A stretch of 64,000 nucleotides of DNA from Candidatus Zixiibacteriota bacterium (lineage in GTDB: Bacteria; Zixibacteria; MSB-5A5; UBA10806; 4484-95), in assembly GCA_021159005.1 (NCBI GenBank), contig JAGGSN010000078.1, forward strand, positions 8,489 to 72,488, in the 5' to 3' direction. The notes beneath the pieces were generated by a model. It was given only the letters and a program-made list of their open reading frames with translations, searched no databases and had not been told where the DNA came from. The translations under genes were made by a program, and so were the position numbers. Below are positions 7,620 to 19,083 of the stretch, one piece after another (positions within the stretch are counted from its first letter, which is position 1; every line of letters starts with the position of its first letter).

Positions 7620-9248
7620 ATGAGCATAACAAAAATACAATTATTCAAACAAGTGCCGCTGTTTTCCGGAATTCCAAAGGAATTATTCAACCATCTGATA
7701 AAAGTAGTAAGCGAACGCACTCTTCCTGCCGGGGAAATATTGTTTTCTGAAGGCGATACAGGTAAAACATTTTATATCATTAAATCAGGTAAAATTGATA
7801 TCCTAAAAAACGACTCCGCTTCAAATAATGAGATTAAGCTGGCAACTCGCGGTGAAGGTGATTTTTTTGGAGAGATGGCGCTTCTGGAAAGTTCCCCAAG
7901 GTTTGCTACAGCCAAAGCAATCAAAAAAACTGTTGTTTTGGAACTATCGCGAAAAAATTTCAGAAAAATAATTGCCGAATATCCATCAATTGCCTTAGAA
8001 ATAATGAGCGAATTATCCTCACGGTTGCGTCAGGCCGACCTTCAATCGATTCGCGACCTTCAAAGGAAAAAAGAACAGCTTGAAAAGTCTAATAAAAAAT
8101 TACTACAAACTACTCAGGAACTGAAAAAATCAAACGAAAGCATACAATCAGCCAACAAATTTCTGGAAACGATTATTTCCGCCTCGCAATTTTTTATAGT
8201 TGTTACCGACAATCAAGGTAAAATATTTATATTTAACGATGCCGCTAAAAAAGTTTTCAACATCATTTTTAGTGATATTGCCTGGTCAAATATCGATTCT
8301 GTTCTTAAGCCGGTTGGGAATAGCAATCTGCTTTCGGAAATCGAGAAAAATCTCGCCGAGGGAAAAACCTGGTCGGGCGATGTTTTAAATTTGACTCAAG
8401 ATAATAAAAAACAATTTATTGAACTTGTTGGAGCCAGAGTATTCGATGAAAAAGGGGACACTTTCGCATCTCTTTATATGGGGCGGGATATTACCGAGGA
8501 AAAGAATGTTGAACGCCAGATGATATTCCTCGACCGGATGGCTAGCAGAGGCGAAATGGCTGGGGAAATAGCCCATGAGTTAAACAATTTCCTTGCGGTT
8601 GTAATGGGAAATCTTGAGCTGCTTCAAATGGAAATTCAAATGAGCAAAACCGATAAAGCTTTGAAAAAAATCAATTCCATGCAAGGCGGGCTCGATAAAA
8701 TAAGAAAATTCGCGGATAGTTTGATGATGTATTCAAGTCCGGATTTGAAAAAAGAGGAATTCGATATTCATTCGTTTTTTGAAAATGAGCTATTCTTCAT
8801 TAAAGCCCACAGTCGTTTTGATAATATCAAAATTGTCTTTGATTTTGCTAAAAGCATGCCTTTAATAACCGCTGATAAAAGCCAGATTCAACAGGTATTA
8901 ATAAATCTGCTAAACAACGCCGCTGATGCCGCTGAAAATTTGCCTGATAGAAAAAGCAAGATTGTAGTTAAAACACTTTACCAGCCGAATGATAATTCAA
9001 TAATTATTTCAGTTACCGATAACGGAGTAGGTTTTGTCGATGATAGCCTTGATAAAGTATTCAGGCAGCATTTTACAACTAAAGAAAGAGGACATGGATT
9101 TGGTCTTCTGGCGGTAAAGAGGGTCGTTAAGAACCATGCCGGCAAGGTCTGGGCTGAAAATAACCCCGAAGGCGGGGCTATATTTTATATTCAATTACCG
9201 ATAAACTCCGAAGAAGTAAAATCAGCTATTCCATCTAATGTAAGCTAA
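7620..9248 (+). CDS. Cyclic-nucleotide-binding domain / PAS / sensor histidine kinase
   Basis: N-terminal CAP-like cNMP-binding fold ('FGEMALLES..PRFATAKA'), a coiled coil, a PAS-like segment, H-box 'EIAHELNNFLAVV', N-box 'LINLLNNAADA', G1 'DNGVGF' and G2 'GHGFGL'. Confidence 0.8.
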   Translation: MSITKIQLFKQVPLFSGIPKELFNHLIKVVSERTLPAGEILFSEGDTGKTFYIIKSGKIDILKNDSASNNEIKLATRGEGDFFGEMALLESSPRFATAKAIKKTVVLELSRKNFRKIIAEYPSIALEIMSELSSRLRQADLQSIRDLQRKKEQLEKSNKKLLQTTQELKKSNESIQSANKFLETIISASQFFIVVTDNQGKIFIFNDAAKKVFNIIFSDIAWSNIDSVLKPVGNSNLLSEIEKNLAEGKTWSGDVLNLTQDNKKQFIELVGARVFDEKGDTFASLYMGRDITEEKNVERQMIFLDRMASRGEMAGEIAHELNNFLAVVMGNLELLQMEIQMSKTDKALKKINSMQGGLDKIRKFADSLMMYSSPDLKKEEFDIHSFFENELFFIKAHSRFDNIKIVFDFAKSMPLITADKSQIQQVLINLLNNAADAAENLPDRKSKIVVKTLYQPNDNSIIISVTDNGVGFVDDSLDKVFRQHFTTKERGHGFGLLAVKRVVKNHAGKVWAENNPEGGAIFYIQLPINSEEVKSAIPSNVS

Positions 9249-9251
9249 GTT

Positions 9252-9602
9252 ATGGATATACTGTTTTTCCTAATATTAGGACATTTCTGCGGCGATTACG
9301 CTTTTCAGTCTGACCGCATGGCTGAACGCAAAAAATCGTCTTTAATAATACTATCATATCATGTAATAGTATATACTATTTGTATCGGGGCATTTTTCGT
9401 GTTCTATTCGCTGTTATATTATCCGGGGTTGTTTTATCAAACTGCCACCTTATTATTTTTAGGAATATTATATATTGAGCACTGGGTACAGGATTTCATT
9501 AAGAACCGTAATGAAACCTGCTCGAAACAAAACTATTATATCGATCAGATGATACACATTGCTGTTTTATATTTTTATCGAATTTTTATATATTCTGGTT
9601 AA
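9252..9602 (+). CDS. Small integral membrane protein (DUF3307-like)
   Basis: 116 aa with three hydrophobic helices. Lies between the histidine kinase and the cyclase gene. Confidence 0.4.
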   Translation: MDILFFLILGHFCGDYAFQSDRMAERKKSSLIILSYHVIVYTICIGAFFVFYSLLYYPGLFYQTATLLFLGILYIEHWVQDFIKNRNETCSKQNYYIDQMIHIAVLYFYRIFIYSG

Positions 9603-9607
9603 TCAAG

Positions 9608-12600
9608 GTGAGCAATACCGAATTAAAATATCTAATCCCTTATTTGCCGGATATATTAATCAATACTGCTGATTGTGATATAAACAATACCGAAAATAGA
9701 ATTATAAACGGAACATTGCTGTTTGCCGACCTCTCGGGTTTTACCGCTATGTCCGAGAAATTGGCCATTATGGGCAGACTGGGCGCCGAAAAATTGGCTG
9801 GCATAATGAATAACTGTTTTAATCCGCTTCTGGGATTGGTTTTTGCTACTGATGGTGATGTTGTCAAATTTGGAGGGGACGCTTTTCTTGCCCTTTTCAC
9901 CGGTAAAGATAATGGTTTAAAAGCTTTCAATTGCGCCAATAATCTGATTAACTGGGTAAATGAGAACAGCAGAATTTCCACATCAGCAGGTGATTTCACG
10001 CTTGGCATTCATGCCGGTATAAGCAAGGGCGATATTTTCAATTTTACTATAGGCAGTAAACGGCGCGATCATCTCTTTTGCGGACAAATAGTCGAGAACG
10101 TTTATGCCGCCGCTGATGCCGCTGAACTTGGTCAACTGGCAATGACAAAAGAAGCCGCCCGGTTTTTTAATAACCTTGATTTCAATGAAACCGATGACGG
10201 GTTCTATATCTGCCAAAATTTAAGTAAAACCTGTAATTATAAACCGGCAATAAGATCTATCGCAGAAAAAACTGCCGCTAAACTATGTTTGGAAAAGTTT
10301 ATCATAACAGGCCTTCAAGACCAGCTTCATTTCAATAACGGTATAATCGAGGGTGAACATCGGGTTCTAACAAACCTTTTTATCGGTGTAAATTCATTAA
10401 GGAAAAACCTTGAGGCCAATATCGATGAATCCATTTCGGTTATAGATGAATATTTTACCATACTTAACGATATTATTATAAAATATGGCGGCGCCTTTGC
10501 TCGGCTTGACTCCAGCGGAACTTCTGAAAAGATGCTGATATTTTTCGGCGCGCCGGTGTGTTCCGGCCGTGATGCTCAAAACTGCTTGAAAGCTGTTTTG
10601 GAGATAGAGTCAGCGATGCAGGACATAAATAAAAAATTCGCTTACCCAATTAAGCATCGCTACGGCATCAATACCGGCCTTTGTTTTGTCGGCGATGTTG
10701 GCGGACAATGGCGGCGAGAATATACGGCTATGGGAGATGCTATCAATCTGGCAGCGCGTTTGATGTCTAAAGCTGATTACGGGGAAGCTTTAGTAGGTGA
10801 AGAAACAATAAAAATATGCGGCAATGATTTTATTACCTGTGATGGCGGTCATGTTAAGGTAAAAGGCAAACAAAAACCGGTTAAAGTATATTTCCTTGAA
10901 AAAGAATTTATTAAGGAAAGCTCAACTGAGCTTATTATCGGCCGGGAAAAGGAACTAGAACAGGTTCGCTTATTTATCGAAAAAATTGCAAATGATAAAA
11001 GGGCATTCTTGTTAGTTTCGGGAGAACCGGGTGCCGGAAAATCGCTTTTATGCGGCAGGATTAAAAATATCTCTATCGAAAAAGGACTGCTAAACATTGA
11101 GAGCGCCTGCTTCAAGCATACGGAAAAAACGCCTTACGTCCCTTTAAAGGCATTGCTAAGCGGTCTTTTGAAGTTATCGTCAAAATCATCGCAAAAACAA
11201 AAACGAGCAGCTCTTCAACAACAGATTAGAAATATAGGCGAAAGCGAATGGGAACCATTAATAGCGCCTTTGTTGGATTATTTTCCAGCAGTGCCGCCAG
11301 AGATAAAGAATTTACCGGATGATATTAAGAAGCAAAAAATCAACGATATCCTGAGTCGTCTAATTTGTGAAATCAATAGTAAAAACCGGTCTCTGCTAAT
11401 TATCGATGATATCCAGTGGATAGATGAGACATCGTTTAATATAATAAAAGCGTTAAAAGGATTAAATAATTCACCGGGGATTGTATTTATCAGCCGCCCC
11501 GGTAAAATTTATGATGAACTGACTAAATCGTCGGATGTGACGAACATTAATCTTGGCGGTTTGACATCCGAAAATTCCCGCAAGCTGTTTTTAACTATTC
11601 TGGAAGGTATATTGCCCTCTGAGGATATCATCCAACAAGTTATAGAAAAATCCGGCGGTAATCCTTTTTATTTGGAGGAGATGGCTCGAGCCTTTATAGA
11701 ATTAGGTTCTGAAAGATTTAACGCCGCTGATAATATACCATCAGGTATAGAATCGGTTATCACCGCCAGAATCGATAATCTTGGGGAAATGGTAAAAAAA
11801 ACCGTTCGCACTGCCAGCGTAATAGGCAGAGTATTCCCATATAATGCTTTAAAAAATATATTCCCTGATAGAAAAAGGGTTGGCAAATTGCGGGAATATA
11901 TCGAAAATCTGGCGCATCTTGATTTAACTCCGCTTGAAAGACAACAACCGGTGTTGGAATATATTTTCAAACATATTTTAACTCAAGAAGTTGCCTATAA
12001 CGGCTTGCCATTTTCATCTCGAAAAAGCCTTCATATTAAAACTGCCGAGTTTTATATTAGTAAAAAGCGGTTTTTGAAACGCAAGCCTGATGTTCCCGCT
12101 CATCATTACCTTTTAGCCGGCGAGGAGCTTAAGGCTTTACCTTATCTATTTATGGCAGGGCAAAAAGCGGTTTCCGAGTTTGCCAGCAGCGAAGCTTTCG
12201 GATTTTTTAATAGAGTTATTGAAATATCTGAAAAACATAACAACAAAGAATATCTCGCTAAAGCGTTACAGAACAGCGGCGAACTGGCAAAACACACAGG
12301 CAATTACAAACTGGCAGAGGAGAATTATTCGCGACTGAAAATGTGTATGGCGGGGAATATCACTATGACAGCGTTGGCGTTGCGTGAAATTTCACTGATT
12401 CACCGTCTGACAGCTGACTATGACAAAGCCGAAATAATTATCGATGAACTGGGAAAACTTCTGCCCGATGATATTCCCATTAAAATATTTAATCTCAATG
12501 GCAAGGCGGAAATCGCCCGCCGCCGGGGTAAACTTCAAGATTGTCGGGAATTATTACTAAAGGCTCTGAAGTTATGCAGGGAAAACGACCCTCCCCCGAA

Positions 12601-13672
12601 TTTGGAGGCAGTTGTTTACAATAATCTGGGTATTTGCCACTGGAGTATGGGTAAAATAAAAGAAGCTGCCGTTTACTATAAATCAGCCTTAGCCCTATAT
12701 CGTCGATTGAAAGATTTAAACGGACAGTCAAAGATTGTAAATAATCTAGGTATTATAAGCGATGAAATGGGCAAACTTCATCAGGCAGCCAATTCATATG
12801 AAAAAGCGGAGAAAATTTTCATACGTATCGGAGCTTCCCGCTCAGAGGCATTCGCCTGCGCTAATCTTGGTACAAATTTTTCAACCAGAGGCTATTTATT
12901 AAAGGCTGCTGATAAACTAAACCGGGCACACACAATATTCAAAAAAATCGGCGATCAACATAGTTTAGCATATACAATCGGCGACCTTGGGATAGTATAT
13001 TTGCGTGAAGGGGATATCGGGAAAGCTAAAAATTATTTAGCAGATGCGCTTGAAATGGCGCTTCAATTGAAAGACGAAGAGTTTATCTTAGAATCAAAAG
13101 TCAGATTAGCGCGGTTAAGACTTAACGAAGCCAAATTAACTATTTCTGAAGTTGAGAAGTTAATTGATAAAGCCAAAGAAGTCGGTTCGGCGGAATTGGA
13201 AATCAAATCCCATATACTTAAAGGACTATTACAATTAAGCACAGGCAATTACGATATTATTAATGGTACTATTGAAATGCTAAATAATATGGAAGAAATA
13301 AGGAATTACCCCGAACTCGAATTGGAATTATCGAAATTGAAAATCCTATTTCATTATATATTTAATGACAAAACAATCGCTATTAAGTTATTAAACACGG
13401 CATTCAAGAAAGCAATATCGGGCGATTTAGCCATAATGGTGTCTGACTTGATAGTAGTTGGCAATGGCTGCGGTTTGATGTTGGAAATTCCATCGAATAT
13501 ATCAGGTAAGATTAGCCAATATTTTGAGAGACTGAAAAATAACATGGAATCTGCCAAACATGAACAACTTATGGTTTTCATCAAAAGAAAGACTGAATAT
13601 TTAAAAAGTATGTTAGCCAATTGTCAAGATAAGCAAAATCAGTCAAAAGTATTGGATTTTACCAATAAATAG
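9608..13672 (+). CDS. Tandem class III nucleotidyl cyclase domains fused to a STAND (AAA_16/NB-ARC-like) NTPase and a TPR array
   Basis: First cyclase homology domain has 'FADLSGFT' and 'GDAFLALF'. Second has 'GDAINLAARL'. Walker A 'GEPGAGKS' at about aa 475. The C-terminal ~450 aa are TPR-like repeats. GTG start. Confidence 0.8.
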   Translation: MSNTELKYLIPYLPDILINTADCDINNTENRIINGTLLFADLSGFTAMSEKLAIMGRLGAEKLAGIMNNCFNPLLGLVFATDGDVVKFGGDAFLALFTGKDNGLKAFNCANNLINWVNENSRISTSAGDFTLGIHAGISKGDIFNFTIGSKRRDHLFCGQIVENVYAAADAAELGQLAMTKEAARFFNNLDFNETDDGFYICQNLSKTCNYKPAIRSIAEKTAAKLCLEKFIITGLQDQLHFNNGIIEGEHRVLTNLFIGVNSLRKNLEANIDESISVIDEYFTILNDIIIKYGGAFARLDSSGTSEKMLIFFGAPVCSGRDAQNCLKAVLEIESAMQDINKKFAYPIKHRYGINTGLCFVGDVGGQWRREYTAMGDAINLAARLMSKADYGEALVGEETIKICGNDFITCDGGHVKVKGKQKPVKVYFLEKEFIKESSTELIIGREKELEQVRLFIEKIANDKRAFLLVSGEPGAGKSLLCGRIKNISIEKGLLNIESACFKHTEKTPYVPLKALLSGLLKLSSKSSQKQKRAALQQQIRNIGESEWEPLIAPLLDYFPAVPPEIKNLPDDIKKQKINDILSRLICEINSKNRSLLIIDDIQWIDETSFNIIKALKGLNNSPGIVFISRPGKIYDELTKSSDVTNINLGGLTSENSRKLFLTILEGILPSEDIIQQVIEKSGGNPFYLEEMARAFIELGSERFNAADNIPSGIESVITARIDNLGEMVKKTVRTASVIGRVFPYNALKNIFPDRKRVGKLREYIENLAHLDLTPLERQQPVLEYIFKHILTQEVAYNGLPFSSRKSLHIKTAEFYISKKRFLKRKPDVPAHHYLLAGEELKALPYLFMAGQKAVSEFASSEAFGFFNRVIEISEKHNNKEYLAKALQNSGELAKHTGNYKLAEENYSRLKMCMAGNITMTALALREISLIHRLTADYDKAEIIIDELGKLLPDDIPIKIFNLNGKAEIARRRGKLQDCRELLLKALKLCRENDPPPNLEAVVYNNLGICHWSMGKIKEAAVYYKSALALYRRLKDLNGQSKIVNNLGIISDEMGKLHQAANSYEKAEKIFIRIGASRSEAFACANLGTNFSTRGYLLKAADKLNRAHTIFKKIGDQHSLAYTIGDLGIVYLREGDIGKAKNYLADALEMALQLKDEEFILESKVRLARLRLNEAKLTISEVEKLIDKAKEVGSAELEIKSHILKGLLQLSTGNYDIINGTIEMLNNMEEIRNYPELELELSKLKILFHYIFNDKTIAIKLLNTAFKKAISGDLAIMVSDLIVVGNGCGLMLEIPSNISGKISQYFERLKNNMESAKHEQLMVFIKRKTEYLKSMLANCQDKQNQSKVLDFTNK

Positions 13673-13866
13673 GGAATTTTCCCAATAATTCTTAGGCGTT
13701 TTATCCGCAATTAAATCATTGTCGTCTTTTCTATTATATTTAATAACAATAGGTTATAACATTCTGCAGAAAATCCCGTTTTTGGGATAATTATATGCTT
13801 ATTGAATATTTCAAAATAGCTAAAGAAATAATTAACAAAAAGGAAGTAATAAACAAGGAGAAAAAC

Positions 13867-14454
13867 ATGAACAAGATGGTGAGAAGCTGTACTTTATTAA
13901 GTATTATAGCAGTATTAGTTGTTGGTTTAGTATTCTCCGGTTGTTCAAATGACACCCCTCTCGGTCCTGATTCTAATGTCGAACAGACGTCATTAAATAG
14001 AATGATTCTGCCGTTGGGAGGAAGCACTACAACGCAAAGTAAGGGCGGTGGTGTTGGTGATCTAACTGTAGTTACGGCAGTTGAAGTTGATAAAGTAATA
14101 AAAGCTTCAAGTGGCGGAAAAATAGATATTGTTGATAATTCTTATGAACATCTTTTTACTATTCAAGAGAATGCCATTCCGACCGATACGCTGATTACTA
14201 TTGCAAAAACTCATGAAATGGTTAATGAAAATGAATCGGCTGTTTTTGAATTTGGTCCTGATGGTTTGGTATTTAGCAGTTCTTCTGTTCTCGAATTTGA
14301 AATGGCAGAATTAGACTCTTCTGCCGCTACTGCAAAACTGTACTATTATGACCCTTCTGATGAAACTTGGGATTTGCAGGATACTAAGTCGGTTGTTGAT
14401 GGCAAGGTTGCTTTCGATATCGATCATTTTAGCAGATATGCAATAAGCGATTAA
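13867..14454 (+). CDS. Hypothetical lipoprotein
   Basis: The likely true start is the ATG at 13867, preceded by AGGAG. The ORF track starts at 13795. Signal peptide ends in lipobox 'VFSGC'. Confidence 0.45.
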   Translation: MNKMVRSCTLLSIIAVLVVGLVFSGCSNDTPLGPDSNVEQTSLNRMILPLGGSTTTQSKGGGVGDLTVVTAVEVDKVIKASSGGKIDIVDNSYEHLFTIQENAIPTDTLITIAKTHEMVNENESAVFEFGPDGLVFSSSSVLEFEMAELDSSAATAKLYYYDPSDETWDLQDTKSVVDGKVAFDIDHFSRYAISD

Positions 14455-14481
14455 TAAAAAAGGGTGGAATATATTAAGTAA

Positions 14482-14509
14482 AGCCTGCCATTGGCGGGCT
14501 TTTTTATTT
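14482..14509 (+). terminator. Rho-independent terminator
   Basis: Hairpin AGCCUGCC-AUUG-GGCGGGCU followed by UUUUUUAUUU. Sits between convergent genes. Confidence 0.7.
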
Positions 14510-14604: not shown

Positions 14605-16746
14605 TCATGGCTTTTCAAAAGCGTTATCGGGTATATCCGGATTGATATTAAATTTCGTTATCTCTATCCGGCCGATTTTCTGGCCATTAAGTTTTCTGTG
14701 TGTTACAAACGGGATTTTTATACCTTCAGTCTCTATGAAATTATCATAAGTTTCCTCAATAGTGCCATCGCCCAATGGCGACGAGCCCCAATAGGATTTC
14801 GAGACTATAATATTATTCTCGGCATTAAATCCTATCCTGCAAACTCTTTCATCGTTTTTATCAAGCAATACAACAAATTCAACGCGAGTATCACCGACAA
14901 CATCCTTGCCGTCATATACGGCTTTGTAAGTGGGGTTATCCGACATCCGGCAAATACATATCGTATTTCTCGCTATATCTTGAATATCCTTTTTAATGTC
15001 CTCATCGGTTTTCGGCACAAGCTGGCCAGCTTGGTCGGCTTTCCAGCCTTTATTGCCGTTTCTGATATCAAACATCTCCCGACCCATCATATTAACAACC
15101 GTTCGATTTTTATCCGGGTAAACATCAAGGCTTTCGATTCCAATCGGGAATTCGCCCTGCGGGGTCATAATTGTAAAAGTTGCCTTTGTTGAAACAGAAT
15201 TTATTTTCTTGAAATTTTTCAACCCACCATGAGCGGCAACTGCCATATCTATTAATTTTTTTCCTTTTGCCAGGTTTTCCGGGGTTATTGAAAGCTCGCC
15301 GGCGGTCTCGCCCGATGGGATTGTAATATCGATTTCATTAATCGAACCCATATTTAGCTCCGTTAAAGGCAAATCGAAATCTTTGGCATCTCCCAAAACC
15401 AATATCTTAATCGCATCCGGCCTAAGATTTTTCCGGGCGGCTTCAATTACATCATTATCGGTTACTTTTTCTACGCCCTCTTTTTGCTTGAATATTAAAT
15501 CTTCCGGCAAGCTATAAAAATCGTAATTCATCAGCCTGCCAATAACCTCAGATTTGGAATCAAAATTAAATACAAATGAATTCAGATAGCCATCCTTGCC
15601 CAATTTCATCTCATTTTCGGTTGGCGGGTCTGTCTGCATACTTTTAATTTGCTCTAACATTAATTTTATCGCTTTAACAGTCGTTTGAGGTTTGGTGGAA
15701 GCATAAGCATAGAAAATGCCGGGATATTCTATATTGGCTGAATATCTGCCAAAAGCCACATAGGCTAAACCCTCTTTTGAACGAACATTGTCTGTCAAGC
15801 GGCTACCGAAACCTCCGCCAAGCACACTGTTCATTACTATCCGAGCCGGGTAGTCTTCATCTGCAACAAGTCCGCCGATATGTCCCATTAATATGTAAGT
15901 TTGAGGCAAATCCTGTTTGTAGATATAATTAACGGTGTTTTCAAATCTATAATCTACCTTAGGAGGAAGGGGAACTTCAATATTGCCTTTCTGCCAGTCG
16001 CCAAAATACTTTTTCACCTTTTTTATTACATCTTTTTTCTTAAAGTCGCCCCAAATCGCTATCTGGATATTTTCAGGGTGATAATATGTTTTATGGAAAT
16101 TAAGTAAGTCATCACGAGTAATAGAGTTAATGCTTGCATATTCAGCATGACGGGCATAAGGTGATTCGGAGCCATAGATAAGCTTTATATATTCTCTAAT
16201 GGCAATTGGAAACGGCTCATCGTTGCGGCGGGAGATTGCAGTTCTTGCTTGGACTTTAGCCAGTTCAATTTTGTCCTCATCGAATACCGGACGGCGCAGG
16301 ATTTCTGCCAGAACCTGCAAGCCAAGGTCGGTGTATTCGCTTAATACTCTCACTGAGGCATTCCCGGACAATCGACCGATGGATGTTTCCACGCTGGCGC
16401 CGATTCCCTCAAGCATCTCGTCGATATCATCGCCAGTCCATTTTTTCGTGCCGCCGGTACGCATCACAGTACCGCATAATGAAGCCAGACCAACCTTATC
16501 GGCAGGTTCGAGATAAGAACCGCAGTTTACTCTAACAGAAGCCTCAAATGTCGGCAGACTTTTATCCTCAACTAAGTAAAGCCTGATGCCATTATCGAGG
16601 GTGGTTTTATCTACTTTGGGAATCTCAAGCTTATTCAATGGAGGAAATTCAAGATTGTCAACTTCCTGGGCGCTTAGATTTATCGAGCTAAATATCAAAA
16701 CCAGCGCTATAAATACCGTTAATATCATTTTATTTTTAAGCATCAT
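14605..16746 (-). CDS. M16-family peptidase-like protein, probably the non-catalytic partner
   Basis: 713 aa with signal peptide and insulinase-like fold. No HxxEH motif. Immediately downstream of the active M16 gene. Confidence 0.65.
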   Translation of the reverse strand: MMLKNKMILTVFIALVLIFSSINLSAQEVDNLEFPPLNKLEIPKVDKTTLDNGIRLYLVEDKSLPTFEASVRVNCGSYLEPADKVGLASLCGTVMRTGGTKKWTGDDIDEMLEGIGASVETSIGRLSGNASVRVLSEYTDLGLQVLAEILRRPVFDEDKIELAKVQARTAISRRNDEPFPIAIREYIKLIYGSESPYARHAEYASINSITRDDLLNFHKTYYHPENIQIAIWGDFKKKDVIKKVKKYFGDWQKGNIEVPLPPKVDYRFENTVNYIYKQDLPQTYILMGHIGGLVADEDYPARIVMNSVLGGGFGSRLTDNVRSKEGLAYVAFGRYSANIEYPGIFYAYASTKPQTTVKAIKLMLEQIKSMQTDPPTENEMKLGKDGYLNSFVFNFDSKSEVIGRLMNYDFYSLPEDLIFKQKEGVEKVTDNDVIEAARKNLRPDAIKILVLGDAKDFDLPLTELNMGSINEIDITIPSGETAGELSITPENLAKGKKLIDMAVAAHGGLKNFKKINSVSTKATFTIMTPQGEFPIGIESLDVYPDKNRTVVNMMGREMFDIRNGNKGWKADQAGQLVPKTDEDIKKDIQDIARNTICICRMSDNPTYKAVYDGKDVVGDTRVEFVVLLDKNDERVCRIGFNAENNIIVSKSYWGSSPLGDGTIEETYDNFIETEGIKIPFVTHRKLNGQKIGRIEITKFNINPDIPDNAFEKP

Positions 16747-16758
16747 TTAAACCTCGCC

Positions 16759-18264
16759 TTAGTTTTCTATAGTATTCATAACACCAACCGTGCAATTATC
16801 ACGGTTAAGGTACTGTTTAGCTACCCGTTGAATATCCTCAGCAGTGATAGCGTTTATTTTATCTAATTCATTGAAAAGTTCGCGCCAATCACCAGAGTAT
16901 GTCTGATAAGCGGCTAATTGCGCAGCCAATCCCCCATTGCTATCGAGGTTAAAGATTAATTCGGCTTTAGCCCTGGCTTTTATTTTTTCAACTTCTGCCA
17001 AAGGTATTAATTCAGTTTTAAGCTTTTCGATTTCGGTCAATATCTGTTTCTCGCACTCTTCATTCGAGTGGTTTTGCGATGGTATAGCATAGACGAGAAA
17101 TAAACAGGGATATTTGCTGGCAGGATAACCGGGATACACGCCAACCTGAACCGCAATTTTTTTCTCTTTAACTAAGTTTTTATGTAACATTGATGTTCTG
17201 CCCTGACCAAAGTAATCAGCCAATGCTTCAATAGCCAGCCAGTCAGGATGAGTTGACTCGGGGATATGCCAGCCAGCCACTAATAATGGCTGAGAGGGGT
17301 CTTCCATATAGACCCGCCGTTCGCTTTTCTGTTCGGGTTCCACAGTAGTTACCGGTTCCGGAGGAGATTGATAGGGAATCGAGCCCCAGTATTTTTCAGC
17401 CAGCTTTATTATATCCTTAGTTTTAACATCTCCGACAACGGCAATGACCATATTTGAGGGAACATAATGCTCCTTATAAAAAGCCATAGCGGCTTCGCGG
17501 GTGTAATTATTGATGTCGCTGGTATGTCCTATAATTGCAATGCCATAGGGATGGGCTTTAAATGCGGCGGCTTTCATTTCATCAATCAATCGTCCGAATG
17601 GACTGGATTCAAGCGTCATTCTGCGCTCTTCCATAATAACATCACGCTCTTTAAACATCTCCCGCAACACCGGTTCTTTGAACCGCTGTGATTCCATAGC
17701 CATCCACAGTTCAACTTTATTGGATGGATAGCTTGATGTATACATAGTGAAATCCATTGAAGTGCCGGCATTCAGACCAACACCTCCTTCGCGTTCTACA
17801 ATTTGGCTGAATTCATTGGGAACTACCAGTTCATAGGAGGTTTCACGAGCGGTATCATACGCCTTGTTTAATATTGCCAGTCTTGTCGAGTCGGCATAAC
17901 GGCCTTTTAGCCGTTCTTTGCGCAATTCCATAAATATTGAGTCTTCTGCTGCAATCAGTTTTAGTTCTTCCTCGATATTTTTACTGCCGATATATTTAGT
18001 TCCCTTAAAAGCCATATGTTCAAACATATGAGCCAGACCAGTATATCCCTTGGGATCATCCGAGCCGCCAACATTTGCCCAGGTTACAAACGAAACTACC
18101 GGCGCGTCATGACGTTCCATGATAATAATCTTCAGACCATTATCCAGATTGTATTCTGTAATTTTCTTTTTGACTTTGGAAAAATCGAAACTTGATGCAG
18201 TAGTCGTCATCGTCAGGATAACACAGATTGTAATCCATATAATCCGGTTAACTGTCTTGTTCAT
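16759..18264 (-). CDS. M16-family zinc metallopeptidase (pitrilysin-like, active)
   Basis: HxxEH zinc motif 'HMFEH' in 'GLAHMFEHMAFKGT'. Signal peptide. Confidence 0.8.
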   Translation of the reverse strand: MNKTVNRIIWITICVILTMTTTASSFDFSKVKKKITEYNLDNGLKIIIMERHDAPVVSFVTWANVGGSDDPKGYTGLAHMFEHMAFKGTKYIGSKNIEEELKLIAAEDSIFMELRKERLKGRYADSTRLAILNKAYDTARETSYELVVPNEFSQIVEREGGVGLNAGTSMDFTMYTSSYPSNKVELWMAMESQRFKEPVLREMFKERDVIMEERRMTLESSPFGRLIDEMKAAAFKAHPYGIAIIGHTSDINNYTREAAMAFYKEHYVPSNMVIAVVGDVKTKDIIKLAEKYWGSIPYQSPPEPVTTVEPEQKSERRVYMEDPSQPLLVAGWHIPESTHPDWLAIEALADYFGQGRTSMLHKNLVKEKKIAVQVGVYPGYPASKYPCLFLVYAIPSQNHSNEECEKQILTEIEKLKTELIPLAEVEKIKARAKAELIFNLDSNGGLAAQLAAYQTYSGDWRELFNELDKINAITAEDIQRVAKQYLNRDNCTVGVMNTIEN

Positions 18265-18705: not shown

Positions 18706-19083
18706 CTACTCAAAATGCGCATAACCCTCATCAAATGAGGCATTAGAAAATGTGGATTCCTGTATCAAATGCTCTATAACTTCCACATTAGCCGGTGAAA
18801 TACTCACAAGCTGAAAGCCGGAATCATAGAGATCGGGATTAGACGCTTTTTTGCACCATTTGCTTTTTGCGCCGAAAGAAATGGATTTCTTCCCTTCTAT
18901 GCCAACAGGCAATACCATCCTTAGCTGAAATGTTCTATCCGTTTCAATAGGTTCATCGCTGATTAGCTTCATGCCATCGGTAGTAATATCTACTAAGCGT
19001 CCTTTAAGTTCATGAGTATCCTCATCGAATATTCGCGAGTAGTAAAATGTATGTCTTCTCGTGAACTGTCTTTTTTCTGTCAT
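18706..19083 (-). CDS. PilZ-domain protein (c-di-GMP-binding type)
   Basis: N-terminal 'RQFTRR' (RxxxR) and 'DITTDGMKL' (DxSxxG-like) motifs. 125 aa. Confidence 0.55.
   Translation of the reverse strand: MTEKRQFTRRHTFYYSRIFDEDTHELKGRLVDITTDGMKLISDEPIETDRTFQLRMVLPVGIEGKKSISFGAKSKWCKKASNPDLYDSGFQLVSISPANVEVIEHLIQESTFSNASFDEGYAHFE

Follow-up and report, generated by a model that had tools for sequence, protein, structure and literature searches.

A bacterial gene resembling soluble adenylyl cyclase, with STAND and TPR modules, located next to a cyclic nucleotide-binding histidine kinase gene

Identification of an sAC-like cyclase gene

We analyzed a 64,000-nt stretch of DNA from Candidatus Zixiibacteriota bacterium (assembly GCA_021159005.1, contig JAGGSN010000078.1, positions 8,489 to 72,488; hereafter the window), with a focus on a long gene on its forward strand. 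This open reading frame (ORF), located at 9608..13672, has a GTG start and a product of 1354 aa. Our results suggest that it probably encodes a bacterial class IIIb cyclase that resembles soluble adenylyl cyclase (sAC, ADCY10) and that would be controlled by its own STAND NTPase and tetratricopeptide repeat (TPR) modules and would signal through a co-encoded histidine kinase. An initial annotation, made from the sequence without database searches, had described the product as an Avs-like protein whose effector is a single-chain nucleotide cyclase. Its coordinates and length for the ORF were exact, and most of its structural claims agree with our data; the Avs-like label does not. The gene also overlaps two ORFs on the minus strand (9640..10008 and 11668..11970), which are mere shadows of its long frame. 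The gene and its modules are as follows:

9608..13672, + strand, sAC-like cyclase gene, 1354 aa, in the order C1-C2-STAND-TPR
9695..10162, + strand, cyclase domain C1, aa ~30-185, with D41, D91 and K87 (best PDB match and profile alignment)
10352..10906, + strand, cyclase domain C2, aa ~249-433, with R299, T373, N380 and R384 (profile alignment and conservation)
10937..11977, + strand, STAND module, aa ~444-790 (AAA_16, NB-ARC, invariant motifs and AlphaFold2 fold)
12125..13627, + strand, TPR-like helical repeat sensor, aa ~840-1340, ~13 helix pairs (Pfam, AlphaFold2 and profile matches)

Pfam models matched the product far beyond chance level. Guanylate_cyc was found in two stretches (83.7 bits, E 1.6e-23), followed by AAA_16 at aa 444-628 (E 2.5e-20), NB-ARC at aa 570-692 (25.8 bits vs a curated cut-off of 23.5), and TPR_12 (1.4e-27), TPR_MalT (1.5e-14) and other TPR families at aa ~960-1200. 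All six motifs quoted in the initial annotation were located in the product: FADLSGFT (aa 39-46), GDAFLALF (aa 90-97), VENVYAAADAAE (aa 162-173), NLFIGVNSL (aa 256-264), GDAINLAARL (aa 376-385) and GEPGAGKS (aa 472-479).

Complementary loss of catalytic residues in the two cyclase domains

The two cyclase domains had been proposed to be degenerate in complementary ways, C1 keeping the metal-binding residues and C2 the transition-state residues. We examined this pattern in two alignment sets, one of the N-terminal 440-560 aa of 119 homologues collected from a 5.8-billion-protein search, and the other of 83 bacterial loci from a one-genome-per-species scan. Both sets demonstrate that the complementary degeneracy is real and family-wide. 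In the 119 homologues, the metal-binding residues D41 and D91 of C1 are invariant, and the positions of the canonical transition-state Asn/Arg pair in C1 are occupied here by E163 and Y166, with Arg never observed at the latter. K87 of C1 is nearly invariant in the homologue alignments. In C2, T373, N380 and R384 are kept in every member of the clade, and the position of the first metal-binding Asp is G260, where Asp never occurs in the homologues. The loss of this first Asp had been noticed previously; what can now be added is that the second metal-binding Asp is gone as well, its position being taken by E307 (Cys342 in human sAC). C2 also has an insertion of the sAC type after R299. Because the same residues recur across homologues, the complementary split is a trait of the family and not an oddity of one sequence.

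One further residue was observed in C2. Asp301 (window 10508..10510) follows R299 by two residues and does not vary among the bacterial homologues examined; the corresponding residue of human sAC is Phe336. Asp301 belongs to the sAC-specific insertion, close to the pseudo-site.

Sequence and fold similarity to human sAC

When C1 was searched alone against solved structures, the top match was human sAC C1 (residues 36-190, E 6e-13). A single-sequence search of PDB with C2 gave CyaB (3r5g) as the best hit (3e-21). For both domains together, a family profile (A1) was built from 16 N-terminal sequences and run against PDB with hmmsearch, and human sAC ranked first with an E-value of 4e-56, followed by CyaB (9e-40). 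The profile aligned collinearly with both catalytic domains of human sAC, C1 at sAC residues 15-198 and C2 at 262-455, and the alignment takes in the N-terminal leader (YLPDILI vs HLPDLIV) as well as the insertion that distinguishes the C2 domain of sAC. In this alignment, D41, K87, D91 and Y166 of the protein correspond to D47, K95, D99 and R176 of human sAC, and R299, T373, N380 and R384 correspond to K334, T405, N412 and R416. The roles of D47, D99, K95, R176 and T405 in sAC have been described (PMC12250328).

The AlphaFold2 model of aa 1-440 (pLDDT 89.6, pTM 0.89) contains two cyclase homology domain folds and no membrane segment. In a Foldseek search of PDB with this model, the 24 best matches were all human sAC (E 2e-28, TM 0.81/0.77, ~475 columns), and the C1-C2 pair of the transmembrane cyclase AC9 came next; homodimeric single-domain cyclases span only half of the model (TMq 0.38). 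An intramolecular pseudo-heterodimer with one composite active site, as had been predicted from the motifs, is therefore well supported. The likeness to the C1/C2 arrangement of mammalian adenylyl cyclases also stands, and the nearest relative can be specified as sAC rather than the transmembrane cyclases or the mycobacterial cyclase-ATPase regulators that had been mentioned alongside them.

Taken feature by feature, the protein has two class III domains in one soluble chain without transmembrane segments, the split catalytic residues of sAC apart from Arg299 at the position of Lys334, sAC as its closest relative in sequence and fold over both domains, and a P-loop STAND NTPase C-terminal to C2. 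The Lys95/Arg176 bicarbonate site of sAC is not preserved in it: the Lys is kept as K87, and Arg176 is replaced by Tyr166.

The STAND NTPase and the TPR half

Motif conservation in the central module was read from 107 full-length homologues. Conserved elements include GR..E at 445-450, the Walker A motif G472xPGxGKS479, the Walker B motif L596-D601 with W604 and D606, the sensor residue R630, and GGNPFYLEE at 683-691, of which G684-N-P686 forms the GxP motif. Sequence profiles of this nucleotide-binding oligomerization domain (NOD) gave weak matches in PDB (P-loop proteins, Clp, and the NB-ARC domains of the plant NLRs Sr35 and MLA13, ~1e-4), and profiles of the repeat region matched TPR proteins and the PH0952 sensor. 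The AlphaFold2 model of aa 436-1354 (pLDDT 86.8) shows nucleotide-binding domain, helical and winged-helix elements. Its nearest fold is PH0952 (6mfv, E 2.4e-12, 734 aligned columns), with CED-4, Apaf-1 and Avs3 next at ~1e-7 (Avs3 E 1.2e-7, TMq 0.18).

With Walker A and B, the sensor-1 Arg, GxP and a winged helix all present, the earlier assignment of the central module to the STAND NTPases is correct, and its kind can be specified as MalT/PH0952. The TPR sensor placed after it was also recovered, at a somewhat greater length than the ~450 aa first estimated: according to the AlphaFold2 model it covers aa ~840-1340, or ~500 aa.

Distribution of the family

At least 535 species genomes in the one-genome-per-species scan contain relatives matching both cyclase domains. 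These relatives occur in Chloroflexota (Chloroflexus and Herpetosiphon), Actinomycetota, Planctomycetota, Ignavibacteria, WOR-3, Cloacimonadota, Fischerbacteria and Zixibacteria, and the same NOD follows the cyclase domains in nearly all of them. Orthologues within Zixibacteria share 46-83% identity with the window protein and are ~1351-1367 aa long. The Chloroflexus sAC-like cyclases of Kobayashi 2004 reportedly have two catalytic domains, and their similarity to mammalian sAC is said to extend through the C-terminal region. Later papers (PMC6660944, PMC12802110, PMC11006738, PMC2613629) credit Kobayashi et al. 2004 (PMID 15322879) with bacterial sAC-like cyclases, of which those of Chloroflexus aurantiacus were the first to be described. 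sAC has been described as a soluble enzyme with two catalytic domains and a STAND-class P-loop NTPase (PMC6660944), and bacterial sAC is also stated to carry the STAND P-loop domain (PMC6660944, PMC12802110). The protein belongs to a family that has been known for two decades and is widespread in bacteria. What is new, and modestly interesting, is the operon with a cyclic nucleotide (cNMP)-binding histidine kinase and a DUF3307 protein, the Arg-for-Lys change in C2, and the family-wide absence of the bicarbonate Arg.

The start codons of two orthologues deserve mention. In loci L004 and L005 (proteins P0036 and P0043), the public start at 8001 gives proteins that begin with MFADLSGFT or MYADLSGFT, within the first strand of C1. 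These deposited starts are probably too short, because tblastn homology to the window protein begins ~80-90 nt upstream of them (at 7920 and 7911).

A conserved three-gene cassette

Two genes precede the cyclase gene on the same strand:

7620..9248, + strand, cNMP-binding sensor histidine kinase, 542 aa, cytoplasmic (cNMP_binding, PAS, HisKA, HATPase_c)
9252..9602, + strand, DUF3307 small membrane protein, 116 aa, the middle gene (Pfam DUF3307, 7e-15)

Only 3 nt separate the kinase stop codon from the DUF3307 gene, and 5 nt separate the latter from the cyclase start. The kinase matches cNMP_binding (6e-23), PAS_9, HisKA and HATPase_c (2e-22) in Pfam. The 11 orthologues compared show no variation in its phosphate-binding cassette (GEM..L..PRFA), in the H-box (E.AHE.NN) or in the N and G boxes. 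Judged by these motifs, the kinase looks functional, and it is likely to be the receptor for the cyclase product.

The same gene order, kinase/DUF3307/cyclase, was found in all 13 Zixibacteria and Ignavibacteria loci with upstream sequence, including Zixibacteria at 61, 56, 54, 46 and 37% identity, further Zixibacteria, and two Ignavibacteria at 33-35%. Over the whole range of identity, 83% to 33%, the length of the cyclase and the composition of the cassette remain constant and the flanks vary, and the cassette is conserved by descent. It was absent around the Chloroflexota, Actinomycetota and other homologues examined. The flanking genes vary by genome and are of housekeeping type, such as RecBCD, MFS and SSF transporters, a TonB-dependent receptor, aspartyl-tRNA synthetase and ClpXP. 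Those of the window encode a Na/Ca exchanger, M16 peptidases, TatD and a PilZ protein. No defence system was detected beside the cyclase gene in the 13 cassette loci or in the window flanks. The initial annotation had left it undecided whether the protein is a regulator or an immune sensor. The context favours a regulator, because the cassette with the cNMP-binding kinase is conserved and its flanks are housekeeping genes. Most simply, the cyclase and the cNMP-receptor kinase form a producer-receiver pair in a regulatory pathway; the initial annotation had itself listed a setting of this kind as an argument against defence.

Several additional observations were made on the cassette. The DUF3307 protein, compared among the window and loci L001, L003-L005, L007, L009-L012 and L083, has invariant polar residues in its predicted membrane helices (GH..GD..Q.D, H37, H77..QD..K and Q..Y.DQ..H), a pattern that suggests a putative metal- or ligand-binding membrane protein. 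A 219-aa ORF with a lipoprotein-like signal (…LVFSGCSND) and no Pfam match lies 123 nt 3' of the cyclase gene (window 13795..14454, + strand). In six Zixibacteria loci (L001, L002, L004, L007, L008 and L009), homologues with 32-40% identity are found just 3' of the cyclase, and weaker homologues occur farther from the cyclase in the Ignavibacteria loci; this ORF may be a fourth member of the cassette. It is followed by a terminator-like hairpin (14480..14502), and in a consensus promoter/terminator scan, terminator-like sites were fewer than in shuffled sequences.

A separate cNMP-binding gene is also present within a few kb of the sAC-like cyclase in three Actinomycetota loci, L065 (4116..4511), L067 (6478..6846) and L069 (5548..5964), and these cNMP-binding domains share 27-31% identity with the N-terminus of the window kinase. 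This hints that the linkage between cyclase and receptor arose more than once in the sAC-like family.

Farther along the window, two adjacent genes on the minus strand (14605..16746 and 16759..18264) encode M16 (insulinase-type) peptidases, both of which combine a domain of the active type with one of the inactive type. They resemble a typical heterodimeric pair and are unrelated to the cyclase. A stand-alone PilZ-domain protein, a member of the c-di-GMP receptor family, is encoded 5 kb from the cassette (18706..19083, minus strand) and adds a further second-messenger component to the region. In loci L001 (13096..20065) and L002 (13274..20065), a RecBCD-type operon (RecD, RecB-like UvrD helicase and RecC) is located directly 3' of the cassette on the opposite strand; the window does not have it.

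Bicarbonate switch and base recognition

In mammalian sAC, bicarbonate frees Asp99 from its salt bridge with Arg176 (PMC12250328). The position of Arg176 is occupied by Tyr166 in the present clade and by Ala, Val or other non-basic residues elsewhere, and Arg was found in none of the 83 bacterial loci, Chloroflexus included. Because this Arg is absent here, the sAC bicarbonate mechanism would be unable to operate in that form. The enzyme of Chloroflexus aurantiacus has been cited as a bicarbonate-responsive bacterial relative of sAC (PMC11006738, PMC2613629), bicarbonate regulation does not form part of the sAC definition in PMC6660944, and a 2026 article (PMC12867704) reports non-mammalian animal sAC as not bicarbonate-controlled.

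Two positions of C2 are predicted to contact the base. The adenine-binding Lys334 of sAC corresponds to Arg299 in all Zixibacteria and Ignavibacteria members; a few members from Planctomycetota and Anaerolineae likewise have Arg at this position, and most of those from Chloroflexota have Lys. The second position is Thr373. Thr is a signature of class IIIb adenylyl cyclases (PMC2613629), and its sAC equivalent, Thr405, contacts adenine (PMC12250328). Because of this residue, cAMP is most probably the product.

Alternative explanations

The antiviral explanation implied by the Avs-like label assumes that the TPR region recognises a phage protein, the NOD oligomerises and the cyclase makes an alarm nucleotide that sets off a defence response, by analogy with Pycsar or CBASS. 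The order of effector, STAND and TPR is indeed that of Avs proteins, Avs sensors are mostly TPR-like, STAND clades with and without a defence role are intermingled (preprint 10.64898/2026.01.04.697583), and Avs3 is among the fold matches described above. In addition, the cyclase domains match the PADLOC PycC models with 59 bits, and the cNMP domain of the kinase resembles those of Pycsar effectors (PycTIR, 67 bits). However, no Avs model of PADLOC was matched by either the full protein or the NOD alone (best hit Avs1b, 9.3 bits, E 0.037), and the PycC and PycTIR matches do not extend beyond the generic cyclase and cNMP domains. The N-terminal module is a cyclase, Pfam detected no SIR2, TIR, nuclease or protease domain in the cyclase protein, and the partner protein carries a histidine kinase rather than a TIR, pore or other killing domain. 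The stable length and cassette down to 33% identity, the housekeeping flanks, the lack of adjoining defence genes and of a defence-island or mobile-element setting with patchy distribution in the 13 loci, and a nearest STAND fold that belongs to the MalT-type regulator PH0952 all argue against immunity, and the 2026 survey of STAND defence (10.64898/2026.01.04.697583) does not use the word 'cyclase' in its main text. The Avs-like identity was therefore dropped, and we consider an antiviral role highly improbable.

It could also be imagined that the tandem cyclase fold is catalytically silent and serves only to bind a nucleotide, as a sensor or scaffold comparable to the class III cyclase-like ATP-binding protein of Pseudomonas aeruginosa. 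A moderate match to the tandem structure of such a protein (6yii, TMq 0.59), the Arg in place of the canonical substrate Lys, and one clearly dead site of the two are compatible with this. On the other side, the residues of the composite site (D41, D91, N380, R384 and T373) are all invariant across the clade, sAC divides these residues in the same way and is catalytically active (PMC12250328), the model resembles sAC (TM 0.81) far more closely than it does 6yii, and the intact cNMP phosphate-binding cassette of the conserved partner implies that a cyclic nucleotide is made. Loss of activity thus seems quite unlikely. Synthesis of another product by an active enzyme, either cGMP or a pyrimidine cyclic nucleotide, fits the invariance of Arg299 in the Zixibacteria/Ignavibacteria clade, whose Chloroflexota relatives keep Lys, as well as the unusual PRFA motif of the partner cNMP domain and the fact that its nearest PADLOC matches are Pycsar effector domains. 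Nevertheless, the second specificity residue, Thr373, is the adenylyl cyclase signature (PMC2613629, PMC12250328), the Glu/Cys-type pair of guanylyl cyclases is missing, and Arg retains the positive charge and hydrogen-bond donor capacity of Lys, so that this alternative is unlikely.

Two further family assignments were tried and rejected. The best NCBIfam match, to the TOMM system kinase/cyclase fusion model (TIGR03903), reached 178 bits vs a cut-off of 705.75 and covered only model positions 282-933, and the protein kinase domain that this family requires was not found by Pfam in the cyclase protein. Similarity to the Pycsar family is confined to the generic cyclase and cNMP domains.

Proposed mechanism and its significance

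The explanation that we prefer is that of an sAC-like cyclase under STAND/TPR control that signals through the kinase, and it builds on the domain content, residue pattern, similarity to sAC in sequence and fold, STAND motifs and gene linkage described above. According to this model, C1 and C2 would fold against each other in one chain to create a single catalytic site, as in sAC, with C1 supplying the metal-binding D41 and D91, and C2 the base-contacting R299 and T373 together with the transition-state residues N380 and R384; the symmetry-related second site would be dead. The composite site would produce a 3',5'-cyclic nucleotide, most likely cAMP. STAND and TPR would most likely keep the enzyme less active at rest, as happens with the C-terminal region in full-length sAC. 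We infer this control from the autoinhibition of MalT/PH0952-type STANDs through contacts between NOD and sensor, which is the control logic expected here (PMC6468293), and from the specific activity of full-length sAC (C1-C2, an autoinhibitory region and a predicted STAND domain with P-loop), which is ~3-fold below that of truncated sAC (PMC12802110). Binding of a ligand or protein to the TPR region, together with exchange of ADP for ATP in the NOD, would release or stimulate the cyclase. Oligomerisation of STAND would not be needed to create the site, because the site forms within one chain. The cyclic nucleotide would then probably bind the N-terminal cNMP domain of the kinase and alter its autophosphorylation, and the PAS histidine kinase would pass the signal to an unlinked response regulator.

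Several points weigh against this model. No response regulator linked to the cassette was observed in any locus. Co-transcription of the three genes as one operon is read from gene spacing alone. The NOD/TPR half was likened to that of eukaryotic sAC through descriptions in the literature. Since Lys334 is replaced by Arg299, there is some doubt about the product, and cAMP is not certain; from the residues at the switch, bicarbonate activation of the sAC style cannot be assumed either. More generally, for this protein and its clade, we infer catalysis, product, direction of STAND/TPR control and signalling from cyclase to kinase.

A more far-reaching proposal is that the cassette represents an undescribed pathway from second messenger to two-component system, in which an sAC-type cyclase gated by STAND/TPR, with Arg replacing the adenine-binding Lys and hence possibly with a product other than cAMP, directly switches a cyclic nucleotide-gated histidine kinase and the DUF3307 membrane protein is an obligatory third partner. 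At present this appears unlikely. If it were true, this bacterial operon could reveal what the unexplained STAND/TPR tail of animal sAC senses; a 2025 study of purified full-length sAC found no regulator that acts via this tail (PMC12802110). A compact bacterial relative with its operon partner offers a tractable system for studying STAND control of a cyclase site formed within one chain, and for asking whether a histidine kinase can be under the direct control of cyclic nucleotides. That the bicarbonate-switch Arg is missing from all bacterial members examined bears on claims of ancient bicarbonate sensing. With regard to annotation, such proteins should be named sAC-like adenylyl cyclases instead of 'tetratricopeptide repeat protein' or antiviral STAND.

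Comparison with known systems

Avs proteins have the same succession of N-terminal effector, STAND NTPase and C-terminal TPR-like sensor and belong to the same STAND superfamily. The protein differs from them in matching no Avs model, in its non-killing effector, in its synteny with signalling genes and in its MalT-type STAND. In Pycsar systems, too, a class III cyclase gene has a neighbour whose product contains a cNMP-binding domain. The cyclases of the PycC type have a single domain. In Pycsar effectors, the cNMP domain is joined to TIR or membrane-disrupting modules; here it is fused to a PAS histidine kinase with a PAS-HisKA-HATPase_c output.

The mycobacterial proteins Rv0386, Rv1358 and Rv2488c, which are relatives with regard to the type of NOD, carry an AAA_16-type STAND ATPase after a class III cyclase domain. 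Their single cyclase domain homodimerises and they end in a LuxR-type helix-turn-helix, whereas the present protein has two complementary cyclase domains and no helix-turn-helix was found in it by Pfam. Fusions of a single-domain cyclase with an ATPase need oligomerisation to form the active site, and the protein described here does not. The STAND regulators of the MalT/PH0952 type (MalT, PH0952, AfsR and GutR) share with it the arrangement of NOD, arm and TPR sensor, the AAA_16 and TPR_MalT domains and the GGNP(F/L) motif. Their effector is a DNA-binding domain, in contrast to the tandem cyclase enzyme found here, whose active site is formed without oligomerisation, so that the activation relay may differ.

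The closest counterparts are the Chloroflexota sAC-like proteins and sAC itself. The former lack the operon link to a cNMP-binding histidine kinase and DUF3307 that is present here. sAC shares the N-terminal leader, the metal-binding Asp pair and Lys95 equivalent of C1, the linker, the insertion and the Thr, Asn and Arg residues of C2, the P-loop STAND and the helical repeats. Its full-length form has a mass of 187 kDa (PMC12802110), compared with 1354 aa here, and its Arg176, Lys334 and Phe336 are replaced by Tyr, Arg and Asp301, respectively.

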